From: an uncultured Desulfobacteraceae bacterium
Lineage (GTDB): Bacteria > Desulfobacterota > Desulfobacteria > Desulfobacterales > UBA11574
DNA length: 36,460 nt
Assembly: GCA_964551515.1 (NCBI GenBank)
Contig: CAZKDT010000001.1
Coordinates: 1-36,460, forward strand
Direction of reading: 5' to 3'
Shown here: one piece after another, positions 17,318 through 24,866 of the stretch
How positions within the stretch are numbered: position 1 is the first letter of the stretch
How the letters are laid out: each line of letters opens with the position of its first letter
Program-made: the position numbers and the translations under genes
The notes under the pieces: generated by a model
The model's database searches: none
Told to the model about the DNA's origin: nothing
Seen by the model: only the letters and a program-made list of their open reading frames with translations

Positions 17318-18030
17318 ATTTCTGCAACTTCTCAATAAGTTATGGTAGTAGACAAAATATTACCATTACGTTTTGTAAGGTGCTTATGGAATTTTAAAGT
17401 ATTTCTATAGAGAAAAGAAGAGAAAAATATTATCAAGGGTTCAAGGCATGTTGTCTAATCAGATCTGACAGATCCGGGATAAGTTCGGTATTTTCAATTC
17501 GATCTTTGAGATATTGCCAAAACGATACTCCCAATTTCCGACAAGTTTTTTTCAAGCTTGTAAATCTATCACGGCACTGACGATCAGACTCACTTCTGGT
17601 GTTACCACTGATTTTGCGTCTTTTAACAACTTTCGGAGGAGCAAATTCATCTTCAGGTGCTGCTTGCACATTTTGAAAAATACTTCGATGTCCCAGCGTT
17701 TGCCGTACAGCCTTATTATTTCTTCATCAGCTATGGAAATATCTGTTGATAAAAGCGCGAGCAAACCCGTTTTTTGTCACAGGAAACAAAAATGATTCTT
17801 GCTTTGTATCCGTCAGACCAACCAAGAGTGAGCATTCTGAAGCCCTTTAAATATTTCTTGCCCGTATGATCGAATACGCGGGAAAGAAGCTCAACTTTTT
17901 TGGAATACCATATTTTTTTTACTTTATGTAAAAAAAGAACTTGAAAGCTATTTTGCATTATGGTAGGCAGTCTCTTTGGTTTTTTACGCCCACATTTTTT
18001 ACTTAAAGACATTGAAAGGATTTTAATGAA
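17318..18030 (-). mobile_element. degraded IS (DDE_Tnp_1 / IS4-like transposase in at least 3 frames) with one surviving terminal arm
   Basis: Frame-shifted pieces read VFDHTGKKYLKGFRMLTLGWSDG, then IIRLYGKRWDIEVFFKMCKQHLK (the YxxRWxIE..F..K signature), then KKTCRKLGVSFWQYLKDRI. The arm aatttctgcaacttctcaataagttatgg (17318-17346) matches the F2 MITE arm at 26 of 29 positions. No second arm is present. Confidence 0.75.
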
Positions 18031-18471
18031 ATGACTCCAAAAAAAGAACTGCAATTCGCTTATGGCCTCATTATTATTCTATTTTTAGTGGGTGTTATAA
18101 GCTATGCAGCCTTTCCTGCCAAGACCCCGGATAAACCCATAAGAATAATGTACAAGGGAGTTGCAGGAAAAGTTTTATTTGACCACAAAACACATGCTTC
18201 AGAAGAGGGTTATGCTCTTTCCTGTAGCGACTGTCATCATCATCCCGAGGATGAGGACTCATCACTTCGAGCTTGCGGTGACTGCCATCAAGTCCCGGCG
18301 GAAGGCCAGGCATTGCCTGAATCTTGTACGGAATGTCATGATACTGATGAGGTCGAAGACACAGAAATCATAAAAAAGACTGATGCGTTTCATTCCCAAT
18401 GTGAGGAGTGCCATCAGGAAAGCGGAGCTGGTCCGGAAGAAAACAGATGCAGTTGGTGTCATGTCTCATAA
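18031..18471 (+). CDS. membrane-anchored multihaem cytochrome c (class III/c3-like, five CxxCH)
   Basis: It has an N-terminal hydrophobic helix (LIIILFLVGVISYAAF), the c3-type VLFDHKTH, and then CSDCH, CGDCH, CTECH, CEECH and CSWCH. The RBS GAAAGGA lies 10 nt upstream. Confidence 0.88.
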   Translation: MTPKKELQFAYGLIIILFLVGVISYAAFPAKTPDKPIRIMYKGVAGKVLFDHKTHASEEGYALSCSDCHHHPEDEDSSLRACGDCHQVPAEGQALPESCTECHDTDEVEDTEIIKKTDAFHSQCEECHQESGAGPEENRCSWCHVS

Positions 18472-18551: not shown

Positions 18552-19850
18552 ATGATAAAAAGATCCTTTATCGGTTTGGCAAAACCCAGGATAGAATATG
18601 AGGCTCTGGACGTTACCGTGCCGGAGCCCAAAATCATTCCAACTTCAAAAAAGGTTACGCTTTTATTAAACGAAATCTATGACCCGTTTGGCCAAAAAAA
18701 GGCTGTGTTATTAAAAAAGGATGATTCGGTTAAAACCGGTCAGAAGCTTTCTCTTTATGACGGCAGTGATGCCTATGTCATTTCCAGCGTTACCGGAACC
18801 ATATCTTCCATATCTTCTTTTTTGGGAGAATTTGGCCGTTCTTATACCGCCATTTCCATAGATGTTGCTGAAGATGAAGAGCTGGATGAACAATTCAAAG
18901 CCCTGTCCGTGGAACCTACCATGGATATTGCCAAAGATTATTTGTCGTTTATTCCCGGTGATCCACCGGCAAGTCTTTTTTCCAATGCCAGCACATCACC
19001 ATCCATAGATACCATCGTTATTTGCGGAGTTGATAGTGATTTATTAATTACCGCCAATCAGCATGCCCTGATGTCCGATGAAAAAGCAATCCAAAAAGGA
19101 GTTCGTATTTTAAAACAACTCACCGGAATTGAAAACATTATCATGGCCGCCCCTGAGCATCTGATGCAGAACGCTGGTGTAAGTGGCGCCCAGGTAAGCA
19201 TTGTGGATACAGAATATCCTGCGACACTTCCGCGCATGATCATGCAAAACGTCCTGGGAAAAGTGGTGCCTGCCGGAAAAAGCTGTGAAGATATGGGCGT
19301 ATGCTTTGTCAGTGCCGAGGCGATAGCCTCCATCGGCACAGCATTTGACCAGGGTCACATACCGCTTTTCAAAAAGTTCAACCTGATCAAAAAAGACGGA
19401 AACTCGGTAATGATATCGGCCCGAATTGGAACACCGGTCCATGAAATTTTTTCCGCCTGCGATGTTACCGTAAATGAAAAAGATCGTATTATCTTAGGCG
19501 GGCCCATGACCGGTTCTTCTATTTATTCGGAGCATCACCCCATTCAACCCGACACCGATGCCGTTATGATTCAGGACGGTAAAAACCTGGCGCTGGTTTC
19601 AGACTATCCGTGCATTAACTGCGGAGAATGTATTCGCATCTGTCCGGCAAAAATCCCGGTGAACATGCTGGTCCGATTTTTAGAAGCCGGACAATATGAA
19701 CAAGCCGCAGAAGATTACGATCTTTATTCCTGCGTTGAATGTGGTCTTTGCAGCTTTGTCTGCGTATCGAGAATGCCGATCTTGCATTATATAAAGTTGG
19801 CGAAGTATGAACTTGGCCGGATCAGTACAGCGGAGGCAACAAATGCTTAA
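18552..19850 (+). CDS. rnfC: RnfC-like subunit (2x[4Fe-4S]) with divergent flavin/NADH region
   Basis: It is collinear with RnfC/RsxC. GGPMTGSS, CINCGECIRICP and CVECGLCSFVC are retained, but the GxGGAGFP and ECEPY positions read GDPPASLF and VDSDLL. Confidence 0.85.
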   Translation: MIKRSFIGLAKPRIEYEALDVTVPEPKIIPTSKKVTLLLNEIYDPFGQKKAVLLKKDDSVKTGQKLSLYDGSDAYVISSVTGTISSISSFLGEFGRSYTAISIDVAEDEELDEQFKALSVEPTMDIAKDYLSFIPGDPPASLFSNASTSPSIDTIVICGVDSDLLITANQHALMSDEKAIQKGVRILKQLTGIENIIMAAPEHLMQNAGVSGAQVSIVDTEYPATLPRMIMQNVLGKVVPAGKSCEDMGVCFVSAEAIASIGTAFDQGHIPLFKKFNLIKKDGNSVMISARIGTPVHEIFSACDVTVNEKDRIILGGPMTGSSIYSEHHPIQPDTDAVMIQDGKNLALVSDYPCINCGECIRICPAKIPVNMLVRFLEAGQYEQAAEDYDLYSCVECGLCSFVCVSRMPILHYIKLAKYELGRISTAEATNA

Positions 19851-20802
19851 TCAGAAAAAATTCATCGTTTCACACGCCCCCTTCTGGCATGACGGGAGCA
19901 CAGTAACCGCCCGGAGTTATAATATGATAATTGCTGCGCTGCCTGCGGTGCTGTTTGGTTTTATGAGCTACGGCATCCCTGCGGTGGGTGTGATTTCACT
20001 CTCTATTTCCTCTGCCATTGTCTGGGAACTGTTGTTTAATAAAATATCAAAGCAAACGATCAGCATCGGAGACGGCAATGCAGCCCTGATCGGCATTCTG
20101 TTTGGGATGCTGTTGCCGGCGACATCTCCATGGTGGCTGGTTATAACCGGCACCTTTGTTGCCGTGGTTATCGGCAAACAGATATTCGGCGGGATCGGTG
20201 GCAATCCTTTCAACCCGGTCCTTGTCGGCCTTGCTATACTGATGCTGTCCTGGAAAGATTTTTTTGATTTTAATGAAGCTTTGATAAACTATGATCTCGG
20301 TTTTGCAATGGTCTACCCTCTTTCCGCCCTCAAACATTTAGGCACATCCGGTATTGATGCCTTCAACACAGCCGGTCTTCTGATGGGGCAGCAGTCAGGA
20401 GGCATCGGAGCAACCTTTGGACTGGGCCTTATCCTGGGCGGAATCTATCTTATCATCAGAGGGTTTATCAGATGGGAAATATCGGTATCATTCCTGGCCG
20501 GTGTATTTATAACCGCTCTGTTTTTCAATATTTCCGATCCTGCCCGTTACGCAGGACCTATTTTTCACCTTTTAACCGGTTATACACTGATCGGAGCGTT
20601 TTTTCTGGCCACGGAAGACTCTTCTTCACCGGTCAACTTTATTCCCATGCTTATTTATGGCGCCGGCGCCGGGATAATGACGGTGCTTATAAGAAATATC
20701 GGCGCCTATATTGATGGCGTAGTATTTGCCATCCTGCTGATGAATCTTGTAAATCCACTTTTGGACAAAATCAGGCCCAAAGCGCTTGGAAAGGTGGTTT
20801 AA
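19843..20802 (+). CDS. rnfD: RnfD subunit
   Basis: Polytopic, with GKQIFGGIGGNPFNP and FFLATEDSSSP (NqrB/RnfD family). The start is set at the ATG at 19843, with GGAGG 6 nt upstream and an 8-nt overlap with the rnfC stop. Confidence 0.9.
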   Translation: MLNQKKFIVSHAPFWHDGSTVTARSYNMIIAALPAVLFGFMSYGIPAVGVISLSISSAIVWELLFNKISKQTISIGDGNAALIGILFGMLLPATSPWWLVITGTFVAVVIGKQIFGGIGGNPFNPVLVGLAILMLSWKDFFDFNEALINYDLGFAMVYPLSALKHLGTSGIDAFNTAGLLMGQQSGGIGATFGLGLILGGIYLIIRGFIRWEISVSFLAGVFITALFFNISDPARYAGPIFHLLTGYTLIGAFFLATEDSSSPVNFIPMLIYGAGAGIMTVLIRNIGAYIDGVVFAILLMNLVNPLLDKIRPKALGKVV

Positions 20803-20803
20803 C

Positions 20804-21397
20804 ATGCGTGAATTGATAAAAATGGTTGTCGTTCTCACTGTTTTGGCCGCATTCTCCGGCGGCTTGCTTGCCGGTCTTCGGAATGGAACGGCTGCTCAGA
20901 TTGAAAAACAGCAACTTGAATTTGTTAAAGGACCCGCCATCAAGAAAATTCTTGAAGGTGTGTCCAATGATCCCATTTCCGACCGGTTTAAAATATCGGA
21001 TGGAGACATGGAAAGAAGTTTCTTCGTGGGCAAATTTGACGGCAAGGCCAAAATGGTTGCATTTGAAAGTTTCGGAAAAGGGTTTGCCGGTGAAGTTGGC
21101 CTGATGGTGGGTATCAACTTAGAGACCGATAAGATTGTCGGCATAGGGGTTACCACTCACAGTGAAACCCCCGGGCTGGGAGCAATGGCAAAAGATGATC
21201 CCGGTTTTGTCGCTCAATTTAAAGGTTTTTCTATAACTGAACCCATTAAAGTCACTAACGACGGCGGGCAGGTGAATGCAATCAGCGGCGCCACAATTAC
21301 TTCCCGGGCGGTTTGCGCGGCCGCTACCGACGCCGGCAAAGTGTATCAAAAGCTGAAACCCCAGGTTTCTGAAAAAATAAAGGAATTTAACAAATAG
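20804..21397 (+). CDS. rnfG: RnfG subunit (FMN-binding)
   Basis: It has an N-terminal anchor helix and the flavinylation motif SGATITS. The ATG at 20804 is 1 nt after the rnfD stop. Confidence 0.9.
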   Translation: MRELIKMVVVLTVLAAFSGGLLAGLRNGTAAQIEKQQLEFVKGPAIKKILEGVSNDPISDRFKISDGDMERSFFVGKFDGKAKMVAFESFGKGFAGEVGLMVGINLETDKIVGIGVTTHSETPGLGAMAKDDPGFVAQFKGFSITEPIKVTNDGGQVNAISGATITSRAVCAAATDAGKVYQKLKPQVSEKIKEFNK

Positions 21398-21407
21398 GGA
21401 GATCAAG

Positions 21408-21998
21408 ATGGCTAAGACGATCACTCAGGAATTTACCAAAGGATTGTGGGCGGAAATACCGCCGTTTCGGCTCGTGCTGGGTCTGTGTCCGGTGTTGGGT
21501 GTCACCACAACCATGGAAAATGGAATCGGAATGGGTTTGGCCACAACATTTGTCCTGTTATGTTCAAATATTCTGGTTTCGGCATTGAGAAACATCATTC
21601 CTCCAAAGGTAAGAATCGCCTGTTTTATCATCATTATTGCAACGTTCGTTATCGTCGTGGAACTGGTGATGCAGGCCTATGCTTATCGGCTGTTTCTCAA
21701 ACTGGGTTTGTTTATCCCCCTGATCGTGGTGAACTGTATTGTTCTGGGACGTGCCGAAGCATTTGCATCCAAAAACAATCTTCTGCTTTCAATGGCCGAC
21801 GGCCTGGGCATCGGCATTGGATTTACCCTTTCCCTGGCTGCGCTGGGTGCGATACGGGAGATTTTCGGAACCGGTACTTTTTTCGGGGCATCGGTATTCG
21901 GGGCTTCATACCAGCCCTTCACATTCATGATTCAGGCGCCGGGTGCATTTGTTAGTCTCGGGTTGATGCTTTGCATTATGAACCTGTTTGAGAAATAA
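21408..21998 (+). CDS. rnfE: RnfE subunit
   Basis: LVLGLCPVLGVTT and LIVVNCIVLGRAEAFA are typical of the RnfE/NqrD family. Confidence 0.92.
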   Translation: MAKTITQEFTKGLWAEIPPFRLVLGLCPVLGVTTTMENGIGMGLATTFVLLCSNILVSALRNIIPPKVRIACFIIIIATFVIVVELVMQAYAYRLFLKLGLFIPLIVVNCIVLGRAEAFASKNNLLLSMADGLGIGIGFTLSLAALGAIREIFGTGTFFGASVFGASYQPFTFMIQAPGAFVSLGLMLCIMNLFEK

Positions 21999-22012: not shown

Positions 22013-22594
22013 ATGAACGAGCTGGGCTATTTCTCAATAATTATCAGCACAATTTTTGTTAACAACATTCTGCTGGCCAAGTTTCTGGGCAACTGTCCGT
22101 TTCTTGGCACATCAAAGAAAATGGAAACTGCTGTGGGTATGGCCATGGCAGTAGTTTTTGTCCTGGTGATGGCAGGAGCCATTACATGGGTGATCTACCA
22201 TCTATTTTTGGTGCCGTTTGATCTGGTATATCTCAGAACCATCGCATTTATCCTGGTCATTGCATCTCTTGTTCAGTTTGTTGAGTTGTTCCTGAAAAAA
22301 AGCATTCCCGCCCTGTATGCCGGACTCGGCATCTTCTTGCCGCTGATTACGACGAACTGTGCGGTGTTGGGCGCTTGTGTCATAAACATCGATGAAGAAT
22401 TAGGCTTTATGAAGTCGCTTGTCGCATCGTTTGGGTTTGCCGTGGGTTTCGGTGTTGCGCTGATTCTTTTTGCAGGTGTCCGAGAACGAATTCTTTTGGC
22501 CAGGGTTCCAAAACCGTTCCAGGATACGTCCATCGGACTGATCACCGCCGGAATTCTTTCTCTTACATTTTTTGCTTTTAAAGGGATGGTGTAA
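22013..22594 (+). CDS. rnfA: RnfA subunit
   Basis: LGNCPFLGTSKK and LPLITTNCAVLG are typical of the RnfA/NqrE family. Confidence 0.92.
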   Translation: MNELGYFSIIISTIFVNNILLAKFLGNCPFLGTSKKMETAVGMAMAVVFVLVMAGAITWVIYHLFLVPFDLVYLRTIAFILVIASLVQFVELFLKKSIPALYAGLGIFLPLITTNCAVLGACVINIDEELGFMKSLVASFGFAVGFGVALILFAGVRERILLARVPKPFQDTSIGLITAGILSLTFFAFKGMV

Positions 22595-22707: not shown

Positions 22708-24801
22708 GTGTTAACAGCTCTTTTGTTTATGTTGGGCTTGGGTGCAGCATGCGGACTCATGCTGAGTGTTGCCTCAAAAGTTTTTTATGTCTATGAGGAT
22801 CCCCGAATTGCCGAGGTAGAAGCATTTATGGCCGGCGCAAACTGCGGAGGTTGCGGATATACCGGATGCTCCGCCGCAGCTGTTGCCGTGGTTGCCGGCG
22901 AAGCGCCCCCCAGTGTCTGTATCGTTGCCGACGCTGAGGCCGCAGCTAATATCGCCGCTATTATGGGCGTGGATCCGGGTACGGCGGAGCCCTTACTTTC
23001 CTACAACACCTGTACGGGCGGTGATCGCGCCCCCGATAAATATTATTATATGGGAATTAACAGCTGTCAGGCCCTTGCCACCTTGTATGGGGGCAAACGA
23101 GAATGTCCGGTAGGATGTCTGGGGTTGGGCGACTGTGTCAGGGCCTGTGCTTTTGATGCCCTTAAGATGGGACCTCATGGATATCCGGTTGTGGATGAAA
23201 TGAAATGCGTGGGATGCGGTGCATGTGAAAAAGTCTGCCCCAAGGATATTATGGAAATCAAAACCATGTCCCAAAAGCTGCTTCATCTCAATCAGTATGA
23301 TGATCGTATTGCCCCCTGCCAGCAGACTTGTCCGGCCGAAATTGATATTCCCAGATACATTTACCAAATCAAGAACGGGGATTACGAAGGAGCGGTAAAC
23401 ACAATCAGGGAACGAAATCCCTTACTGTTATCCTGCGGCCGGGTCTGCCCCCATCCCTGTGAAGATAAGTGCCGCAGGGGCATTGAAGACGAACCGGTTT
23501 CCATCAATCAGTTGAAACGGTTTGTTGCCGATTATGAAATGAATTCAGGACGTCGTTTTCCCGTATCCGTGGCCCCTTCCACCGGTAAAAAAGTGGCGGT
23601 CATCGGTGGAGGTCCGGCCGGACTAAGCTGTGCTTTTTTTCTCCGCCGTTTGGGCCATGATGTTACGATTTTTGACGCTATGCCTAAACTCGGAGGTATG
23701 ATTCGGTATGGAATTCCAGAATATCGACTCCCCAAAGAGGTGCTTGCATGGGAAACCGATGGGATTTTAAAGATAGGAATTGAACACAAGCCAAACATAA
23801 TGCTGGGCCGTGATTTTGACATCGGATCACTTATAGCTGCCGGATATGACGCCGTGTTCTTGGGTATCGGCGCATGGAAAGATTACACCCTGCGTGTTGA
23901 AGGTGAGGATCTTAAAGGCTGCTACACCGGAATTAATTTTCTGACCAATTTCGCTTTATGGCAGCAGGAAGACGGAAATGAAGACCGTCGGCCGTATGTG
24001 GGCAACAGATGCGTCGTGATCGGCGGCGGGAACACTGCCATAGACTGTGTGCGGACCCTGATTCGTCTGGGCGCTGAAGAAGTATCCATTGTCTACCGCC
24101 GGACCCGGAAAGAAATGCCTGCTAATGAGGTTGAAATCGTCGCCGCCGAACATGAAGGCGTAAAATTTACTTTTCTGGCTGCGCCCACCCGTGTGATCGG
24201 AGATGAGGACGGCAATGTTACCGGGCTTGAATACCTGAAGATGGAGCTTGGTGAACCCGATGCCAGCGGCAGACGCCGTCCGGTACCCATTGAAGGTTCG
24301 GAGACCGTCATGGATATCGATATGCTGATTACCGCCATCGGCCAGGGTCCGGATGTCTTTTTCAAGAATGAAAGCAAACGTCTTGACCAAGATTTAAATA
24401 TTACCCGCTGGAATACCATTGACTCCGAAGATCCGGTGGCGCTGCAGTCCAGCATACCTTATATTTTTACCGGGGGAGACTCCGCAACCGGTGCGGCCCT
24501 GGTGGTCTCTGCGATTGGCGCTGGCCGACGAGCAGCCCGCTCGATTCATTTATACATTACCGGCGAGAAAATAACGCCACCGGCGAAAACGTTGTTTACG
24601 AATAATATACCAGTGTCAATCTTTGAATCGGTTCCAGGAATAGAAAAATCTTCAAGAACAAAGATGCCGGAACTTCCGGTTGATGACCGTATAAAGTCAT
24701 TTATAGAGGCAGACCTTGTGATCAACGAAGAAGATGCCCTGTATGAATCAGGTCGCTGTTTGCAATGCTGTCTGACCTGCTATAACAAAGATGTTGCCTG
24801 A
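22708..24801 (+). CDS. rnfB: RnfB-like Fe-S subunit fused to a GltD/NfnB-like FAD- and NAD(P)H-binding oxidoreductase (697 aa)
   Basis: Residues 1-190 contain a TM helix, CGGCGYTGC, CPVGCLGLGDCVRAC and CVGCGACEKVCP, as in RnfB. Residues about 195-600 contain CQQTCP...GRVCPHPCEDKC, VAVIGGGPAGLSCAFFL, GGMIRYGIPEYRLPK, VVIGGGNTAIDC and GGDSATG, as in GltD/NfnB. It has a GTG start with AAGGAGG 5 nt upstream. Confidence 0.85.
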   Translation: MLTALLFMLGLGAACGLMLSVASKVFYVYEDPRIAEVEAFMAGANCGGCGYTGCSAAAVAVVAGEAPPSVCIVADAEAAANIAAIMGVDPGTAEPLLSYNTCTGGDRAPDKYYYMGINSCQALATLYGGKRECPVGCLGLGDCVRACAFDALKMGPHGYPVVDEMKCVGCGACEKVCPKDIMEIKTMSQKLLHLNQYDDRIAPCQQTCPAEIDIPRYIYQIKNGDYEGAVNTIRERNPLLLSCGRVCPHPCEDKCRRGIEDEPVSINQLKRFVADYEMNSGRRFPVSVAPSTGKKVAVIGGGPAGLSCAFFLRRLGHDVTIFDAMPKLGGMIRYGIPEYRLPKEVLAWETDGILKIGIEHKPNIMLGRDFDIGSLIAAGYDAVFLGIGAWKDYTLRVEGEDLKGCYTGINFLTNFALWQQEDGNEDRRPYVGNRCVVIGGGNTAIDCVRTLIRLGAEEVSIVYRRTRKEMPANEVEIVAAEHEGVKFTFLAAPTRVIGDEDGNVTGLEYLKMELGEPDASGRRRPVPIEGSETVMDIDMLITAIGQGPDVFFKNESKRLDQDLNITRWNTIDSEDPVALQSSIPYIFTGGDSATGAALVVSAIGAGRRAARSIHLYITGEKITPPAKTLFTNNIPVSIFESVPGIEKSSRTKMPELPVDDRIKSFIEADLVINEEDALYESGRCLQCCLTCYNKDVA

Positions 24802-24829
24802 AACGCATCTTCCAAAAAAAATCAACCAG

Positions 24830-24866
24830 AGCGCAAAACGTAATCTTTGTTTTGCGCTTTTTTGTT
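24830..24866 (+). terminator. rho-independent terminator of the rnf operon
   Basis: A 10-bp stem (agcgcaaaac / gttttgcgct) encloses a 9-nt loop and is followed by TTTTTGTTT. It begins 28 bp after the rnfB stop. Confidence 0.8.

Follow-up and report, generated by a model that had tools for sequence, protein, structure and literature searches.

The gene at positions 18552 to 19850 of the window (the whole stretch of DNA that was analysed, 36,460 nucleotides from an uncultured Desulfobacteraceae bacterium) encodes the RnfC subunit of an Rnf2 complex, the already published Desulfobacula toluolica Tol2-type of Rnf, in a sulfate reducer of the order Desulfobacterales. Its sequence supports the loss of the FMN/NADH site from this RnfC with retention of the Fe-S relay, as an earlier note on this DNA had proposed: the four motifs of the site are replaced, the eight cluster-binding Cys residues are invariant and the fold is kept. 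All the features of Rnf2 are found at the locus, namely an RnfC in which the usual domain signatures are absent, a large RnfB, a cytochrome gene and orthology with named Desulfobacterales. To the published description this analysis adds that the four motifs are replaced, that an acidic pair is kept as Asp, that the domain is not absent but has kept its fold, and that RnfD has lost the Thr residue to which FMN is covalently bound.

Seven genes of one orientation make up the operon, in the order cytochrome c, rnfC, D, G, E, A and B. Second in this row, rnfC is also the first rnf gene, ahead of rnfD, as in canonical operons. The operon is laid out as follows.

18031..18471, forward strand: c3/c7-type cytochrome c with five haems, 146 aa long and with a single hydrophobic helix at the N terminus, the first gene of the operon, directly upstream of rnfC
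18552..19850, forward strand: rnfC of the Rnf2 type, 432 aa, with the RnfC fold, two 4Fe-4S sites and replaced FMN/NADH motifs
19807..20802, forward strand: RnfD (Pfam NQR2_RnfD_RnfE, 1.3e-90; TIGR01946, 230 bits)
20786..21397, forward strand: RnfG (NF045876, 256 bits; Pfam FMN_bind)
21408..21998, forward strand: RnfE (TIGR01948, 245 bits)
22013..22594, forward strand: RnfA (TIGR01943, 245 bits)
22708..24801, forward strand: large RnfB of 697 aa, fused to an NfnB/GltD-like NADPH-FAD module
24828..24860, forward strand: terminator-like hairpin (13-bp stem, then a T run) after rnfB, at the end of the operon

The ATG at 19843, which overlaps rnfC by 8 nt, is the likelier start of rnfD. The membrane-anchored cytochrome carries five CxxCH motifs and matches the Pfam families Cytochrom_CIII (9e-11) and Cytochrome_C7 (4e-6). 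The flanks of the operon vary between loci, and no conserved neighbour gene that could encode a partner of RnfC was found beside it in the loci examined.

RnfC is homologous to NuoF/Nqo1 (PMC9588780, PMC11889175), and four of its segments are assigned here to the FMN/NADH site by this homology and by their conservation in canonical RnfC. Nowhere is canonical RnfC better conserved than in these segments, whose majority fraction is 0.73-0.94 vs 0.59 overall. In the protein from the window all four NuoF-type motifs are replaced, which places it outside canonical RnfC, while GGPMTGSS (residues 316-323) and both Fe-S motifs are in place, in the very letters in which the earlier note had quoted them; its quotation of residues 134-170 is likewise correct.

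18951..19061, forward strand: replaced segment, RnfC residues 134-170, IPGDPPASLFSNASTSPSIDTIVICGVDSDLLITANQ, with PGDPPASLF for GxGGAxFPT and C-G-V-D-S-D-L-L for N-G-A-E-C-E-P-Y
19212..19244, forward strand: RnfC residues 221-231, EYPATLPRMIM, in place of canonical KYPQG(A/S)EKQLI
19302..19328, forward strand: RnfC residues 251-259, CFVSAEAIA, in place of canonical xVxNVGTxx (NVGT replaced by SAEA)
19611..19646, forward strand: first 4Fe-4S motif, RnfC residues 354-365, CINCGECIRICP, with C354, C357, C360 and C364 invariant
19731..19763, forward strand: second 4Fe-4S motif, RnfC residues 394-404, CVECGLCSFVC, with C394, C397, C400 and C404 invariant

The alignment to RnfC proteins of solved structure that had been suggested, that of A. 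woodii included, bears out the replacement. A phmmer search against all PDB chains retrieves 7zc6_C, 9eri_C and 8ahx_C with E-values of about 3e-30 to 6e-30, and in its register IVGMGGATFPTHVK and IVGLGGATFPTHVK stand opposite FIPGDPPASLFS, and VVNAAECEPYLTCD opposite VICGVDSDLLITAN; the IVG(M/L)GGATFPTHVK stretch of the solved proteins is aligned with FIPGDPPASLFS and their (N)(G/A)(A/S)ECEPYLTxD stretch with CGVDSDLLITAN. Comparison by hhalign of a profile of 27 orthologues (A1) with one of 12 canonical RnfCs from the same phylum (A2) gives the same register over 418 collinear columns (probability 100%, E 1.2e-52, 20% identity), in agreement with the collinearity over the whole length that had been noticed at first reading. 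The three structurally characterised, NADH-dependent RnfCs of ferredoxin:NAD+ Rnf, those of A. woodii (9ERI), C. tetanomorphum (7ZC6) and A. vinelandii (8AHX), share with the present protein the fold, the barrel-sandwich domain, GGPMxG and the two C-terminal 4Fe-4S motifs, but are 18-22% identical to it and carry the canonical motifs at the four positions where it does not.

The earlier claim that both the Gly-rich loop and the ECEPY motif are gone holds in part. Both are replaced, but Asp161 and Asp163 occupy the two Glu positions of E-C-E and are invariant in 27/27 orthologues, so that the acidic character of this segment is kept and what is lost is Cys, Pro and Tyr. In the replaced Gly-loop segment P135 and G136 are likewise invariant. 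The replacement is common to the relatives, being retained in orthologues down to 36-41% identity.

Conservation, expressed as the mean majority-residue fraction, was compared between the variant clade (34 sequences, down to 36% identity) and canonical RnfC.

Whole protein: 0.56 in the variant clade, 0.59 in canonical RnfC
Gly-loop region: 0.47 in the variant clade, 0.87 in canonical RnfC
Two Fe-S segments: 0.81-0.83 in the variant clade, 0.73-0.77 in canonical RnfC

In the variant clade the former Gly-loop region falls below the average of the protein, which fits a relaxed constraint. Conservation of the variant RnfC peaks in the Fe-S segments, whose eight Cys residues are all invariant; the replacement of motif 4 is equally conserved (0.75), and the F-x-x-AEAV segment, D161, D163, P135 and G136 are strongly conserved. 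The protein is thus under selection, and it keeps the RnfC fold. An AlphaFold2 model built on the 27 orthologues (pLDDT 78.9, pTM 0.74) has as its best Foldseek matches RnfC (E 1e-25 to 1e-22, TM about 0.6), followed by NqrA (about 1e-15) and by NuoF-like subunits (1e-7).

A second flavin site of the complex is altered in RnfD, as this feature of the same operon indicates.

20299..20334, forward strand: RnfD segment GFAMVYPLSALK, with Tyr170 at the position of the canonical covalent-FMN Thr

RnfD reads AMVYPL where the solved RnfDs read TTATPL, and its segment GFAMVYPLSALK is aligned to GVTTATPLAILK of 7zc6_D and to TVTTATPLALLK of 9eri_D. RnfG keeps its FMN-attachment motif SGAT (NAISGATITS). 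Among 71 aligned loci, Thr is found at the RnfD site in 17/17 of those where RnfC is canonical and RnfD full-length; in the variant clade this position is held in nearly all cases by Tyr, Ala, Phe, Asn or Glu, and SGAT of RnfG is retained. The loss of the RnfD Thr therefore co-varies with the state of RnfC, and in the return arm of RnfD and RnfC the two flavin sites have changed in step. RnfD could still bind FMN non-covalently.

The large RnfB is composed of an RnfB part (residues 1-199, a membrane helix and Fe-S domains, of which residues 4-199 match 7zc6_B at 1.3e-49) and of a flavoprotein part (residues ~184-689) that matches the subunits for NADPH in NfnABC (9bov_A, 2e-124; 9n5u_A), StnC (8oh5_C) and NfnB (4ylf_B, 5jca_L). 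Pyr_redox_2 and Fer4_20 domains are recognised in the 697-aa protein, and the fingerprints VIGGGPAG for FAD and VIGGGNTA...VYRRT, of the NADPH type, are intact. That the module would use NADPH rather than NADH is suggested by its YRR fingerprint and by the closest homologues of known structure. The complex has accordingly a pyridine-nucleotide site, yet on the RnfB side.

With the four RnfC motifs and the FMN-carrying Thr of RnfD gone and an NADPH module present on RnfB, the residues indicate that an NAD+ branch like that of A. woodii cannot work, and NADPH and periplasmic cytochromes are the likelier pair for Rnf2 to link. The reading we favour, with a confidence that is fair and not high, is that of an ion-coupled, linear NADPH:cytochrome c oxidoreductase wired like Nqr, in which RnfC would be a cap bearing Fe-S clusters. 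The pyridine-nucleotide site would have shifted from RnfC to RnfB, and NADPH would be oxidised or formed at the flavoprotein fused to RnfB. From NADPH, electrons would reach the periplasmic cytochrome by way of FAD, the RnfB Fe-S chain, the cluster of RnfA/E and the RnfG-bound FMN, or travel in the reverse direction, and the step at RnfA/E and RnfG would be coupled to Na+ or H+ movement as in the A. woodii model. RnfC would mainly cap RnfD on the cytoplasmic side, and its pair of Fe-S clusters would act as a side store or as an exit to some acceptor. More tentatively, we propose that the return arm lost both its flavins, on RnfD the covalent FMN and on RnfC its FMN, and that an NADPH-FAD input was gained on RnfB, which would make the complex a linear ion-coupled NADPH:cytochrome c3 oxidoreductase whose Nqr-like wiring was reached independently within Rnf and whose RnfC clusters have an unrecognised role.

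The topology of this favoured scheme would be that of Na+-NQR (8ACY, 4U9O), in which NqrA, the homologue of RnfC, has no FMN/NADH site and the NAD(P)H flavoprotein lies on the NqrF/RnfB side; NqrA is also the second-best structural match to the RnfC model (E about 1e-15). The two systems differ in that NqrA has no Fe-S clusters whereas the present RnfC has both, in that the operon is of the rnf and not of the nqr type, in the acceptor of Nqr, which is quinone and not cytochrome c, and in that NqrF is unrelated to the GltD-like module. The Rnf of Methanosarcina acetivorans, which is co-transcribed with the multihaem cytochrome c MmcA and makes no use of NAD(P) at RnfC, is an earlier example of an Rnf linked to a cytochrome and independent of NAD(P) (PMC4023990). 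However, the Methanosarcina RnfB is short, takes ferredoxin and lacks an NADPH module.

The linear scheme leaves the strict conservation of the RnfC clusters and of Asp161 and Asp163 unexplained, and the invariant Fe-S Cys residues, together with the conserved D161, D163, P135, G136 and F-x-x-AEAV, argue for a redox or binding role of RnfC beyond that scheme, possibly with a second cytoplasmic partner. One could hence imagine that RnfC keeps a cytoplasmic redox site of a new kind, its remodelled pocket (the PG loop, Asp161/Asp163 and AEAV) binding another ligand or partner such as ferredoxin or flavodoxin and its 4Fe-4S clusters forming a second exit or entry for electrons, so that NADPH, cytochrome c and a further partner would be linked. 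This would account for eight invariant Cys residues in the most conserved segments of the protein, for an acidic pair present as invariant Asp and for a motif 4 replacement that is equally conserved (0.75), and ferredoxin is still a substrate in the published hypothesis (PMC11887813 supplement). However, the RnfD that would feed the RnfC branch has no FMN-carrying Thr, the Gly-loop region is conserved below average and no conserved candidate gene for a partner adjoins the operon at the examined loci, and we consider such a site unlikely, though worth keeping in mind.

We give still less credit to the view that the NfnB-like FAD on RnfB bifurcates or confurcates, NADPH electrons being split between ferredoxin at the Fe-S domains of RnfB and the path to the membrane and the cytochrome. 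The nearest solved relatives of the module do reside in electron-bifurcating complexes (NfnABC 9bov and 9n5u; StnABC 8oh5; NfnB 4ylf and 5jca), but GltD itself is non-bifurcating and the sequence does not separate a simple from a bifurcating mode. In StnABC and NfnABC, moreover, the GltD/NfnB-like module is read as the NADPH site and not necessarily as the bifurcating centre. As for a decayed, non-functional rnfC copy, or a misalignment that would hide a Gly-rich loop, the low family scores are all that speaks for it, and this explanation, to which we give next to no weight, is refuted by the data. The frame is intact, the gene is the sole rnfC of the genome, the replacement is kept down to 36% identity and in 11/13 sampled genomes of the same order, and subunits of Rnf2 were found in the proteomes of relatives (PMC5109826). 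A GxGxx[GA] pattern elsewhere in RnfC, which would have spoken against the loss of the site, is found by regular expression nowhere in the protein, neither is GxGxxG, and the sole GG belongs to the shared GGPMTG. Misaligned motifs are excluded by the agreement of phmmer against PDB chains, MAFFT and hhalign, the last collinear over 418 columns. Redundancy with a canonical Rnf or Nqr was also rejected, the 94.5%-complete assembly containing neither a second rnfC nor nqrA; one ApbE flavin transferase, a Nuo (NuoD) and three NuoF-like proteins are encoded in this genome.

The distribution of these features was examined at 29 named loci and 60 loci from a sample of 400 genomes of the phylum, scored for RnfC motifs, cytochromes, RnfB length and fusion, and the RnfD site; the RnfC sample of the phylum comprised 75 sequences. 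The canonical RnfCs (n=21, two PDB sequences included) form a single clade with support 100/100, and neither a neighbouring cytochrome nor a fused RnfB occurs among these 21 loci. On the other side of the RnfC tree, a gene for a 4-8-haem cytochrome adjoins rnfC in 42/42 rows. The RnfC of the window lies inside a core Rnf2 clade of 34-35 rows (support 100/99), in which RnfB is mostly 658-707 aa long and fused and the RnfD site is mostly Tyr, Ala or Phe; core-clade loci devoid of a fused RnfB lie at the end of a contig or, in two genomes, have a short RnfB. Two close relatives (L038 and L039) combine such an RnfC and cytochrome with a short RnfB that lacks the NADPH module, so the fusion is not a fixed part of the type. 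Of the 13 sampled genomes of the same order, 11 contain a match to the variant RnfC (E <= 1e-40). The protein is 93% identical to that of Desulfobacteraceae bacterium Eth-SRB2 (a MAG) and 57% to that of Desulfonema magnum 4be13, and the operons are alike.

The type itself appears as "D. toluolica Tol2-type Rnf" in Dörries et al. (2016), who cited the Tol2 genome work and described an RnfC without NADH-ubiquinone oxidoreductase (Complex1_51K) and SLBB domains, a small cytochrome in the gene cluster and subunits detected in proteomes (PMC5109826). Published descriptions cover Desulfobacula toluolica, Desulfococcus multivorans and the Desulfobacteraceae at large (PMC5109826, PMC11887813), and a 2025 study uses the name Rnf2 and assigns the complex to the core genome of Desulfobacteraceae (PMC11887813). 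Published proteogenomics indicates that Rnf2 is made abundantly and constitutively. The supplement of PMC11887813 notes that RnfC lacks the FMN-binding domain, "challenging a function in NAD+ reduction", and proposes that Rnf2 reduces the associated cytochrome c3, which hands electrons to Qrc; it retains ferredoxin as substrate, leaves the loss of the RnfD Thr unmentioned and calls the other subunits very similar. The idea having thus been published as a hypothesis, the present locus adds one member and detail, and is no discovery. In its architecture the locus is indistinguishable from the Tol2-type, with a cytochrome c3-type gene, an RnfC without recognisable Complex1_51K or SLBB, RnfDGEA and an RnfB that, at about 700 aa, includes a pyridine-nucleotide oxidoreductase domain, and it shares with it the order Desulfobacterales. 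The Rnf2 type is absent from a 2025 review of Rnf and Nqr, and no biochemical study of it was found in the literature.

A large share of marine sulfate reduction is due to Desulfobacteraceae, whose Rnf2 is still drawn as a ferredoxin:NAD+ pump. If our proposal is true, the cytoplasmic NADPH pool would be linked to the periplasmic haem network and hence to interspecies electron uptake in syntrophs such as the relatives of Eth-SRB2. This would bear on how electrons cross the membrane in Desulfobacteraceae, the syntrophic partners of alkane-oxidising archaea included.

In RnfC, Pfam recognises the N-terminal barrel-sandwich domain RnfC_N (32.7 bits for a cut-off of 25.6) and 4Fe-4S dicluster domains, so that the barrel-sandwich domain and both 4Fe-4S motifs of RnfC are in place. 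Complex1_51K, the Nuo51 FMN-binding domain, scores 31.0 bits, below its cut-off of 31.2, over profile positions 26-148 of 150 only and with its N terminus truncated, and no match to the SLBB domain of Pfam was obtained. TIGR01945 (NCBIfam rnfC) gives 188.2 bits, under the 245.95-bit cut-off of canonical RnfC. The scores against TIGR01936 (NqrA; 42.5 bits, cut-off 321) and NF041837 (Methanosarcina RnfC; 113 bits, cut-off 650, over residues 219-423 only) likewise keep the protein out of these families. Homologues of RnfC number in the thousands, and the nearest 120 homologue clusters, 60-95% identical and 375-432 aa long, all stem from Desulfobacterales metagenomes. The nearest clusters are often labelled merely "4Fe-4S dicluster domain-containing protein".

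In RnfD encoded by the Rnf2 operon, a Tyr residue (Tyr170) occupies the position of the canonical Thr to which FMN is covalently attached, and the surrounding segment reads AMVYPL versus TTATPL in canonical RnfD. Across the 71 rnf loci compared, the loss of this Thr residue goes together with the flavin-less RnfC, whose FMN/NADH motifs are replaced, while all 17 canonical operons of the comparison retain it. The 2025 study of Rnf2 describes the subunits other than RnfC as "very similar" and leaves the RnfD Thr change unmentioned (PMC11887813). The features of the window considered here are as follows:

17731-18054, minus strand, ORF of 107 aa containing LTLGWSDGY, directly upstream of the cytochrome gene
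20299-20334, plus strand, RnfD residues 165-176, with Tyr170 at the position of the covalent-FMN Thr
24745-24798, C-terminus of the fused RnfB, with CLQCCLTC as its final residues

The flavin-less RnfC type does not require the fusion of RnfB with a GltD-like module. Indeed, two of the closest relatives sampled (L038 in genome G342 and L039 in genome G078; 60% RnfC identity) possess the cytochrome, the flavin-less RnfC, and the Tyr residue in RnfD, and their RnfB, encoded on the opposite strand, has only 266 to 270 aa and lacks this module. A fused RnfB-GltD of 687 to 753 aa occurs with a degenerate RnfC in L069, L073, L076, and L077 (families f44, f107, f27, and f80). In three of these four loci, no cytochrome gene is located nearby, so that either the fusion or the cytochrome can be present on its own. 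At the C-terminus of the fused RnfB, CLQCCLTC aligns to RCLEC-GCM of 9bov_A, which runs into additional Fe-S domains; CLQCCLTC may also provide some of the residues that coordinate a cluster in the GltD-like module.

A second RnfC group, in which VDFGIDAVP and VDLEPG replace the Gly loop and the ECEPY motif, is found in L060, L066, L067, L070, and L071 (phylum families f49, f90, and f29). In these five loci, RnfD carries Glu or Pro at the FMN-Thr position, RnfB is short (about 270 aa) and devoid of an NAD(P)H module, and a four-heme cytochrome gene is present in two cases. Their RnfCs exceed the cut-off of the rnfC model TIGR01945 despite the fact that no pyridine-nucleotide site is recognizable anywhere in the operons. 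These loci may correspond to the Desulfovibrio-type Rnf, which is usually depicted as a ferredoxin:NAD+ enzyme.

In the MAG MFD03804.bin.1.84, the rnfC homolog (L037:7001-8306) lies in two ORFs of 351 and 110 aa, a split that could stem from a frameshift or an assembly error. The 107-aa ORF preceding the cytochrome gene of the window looks like a transposase fragment.
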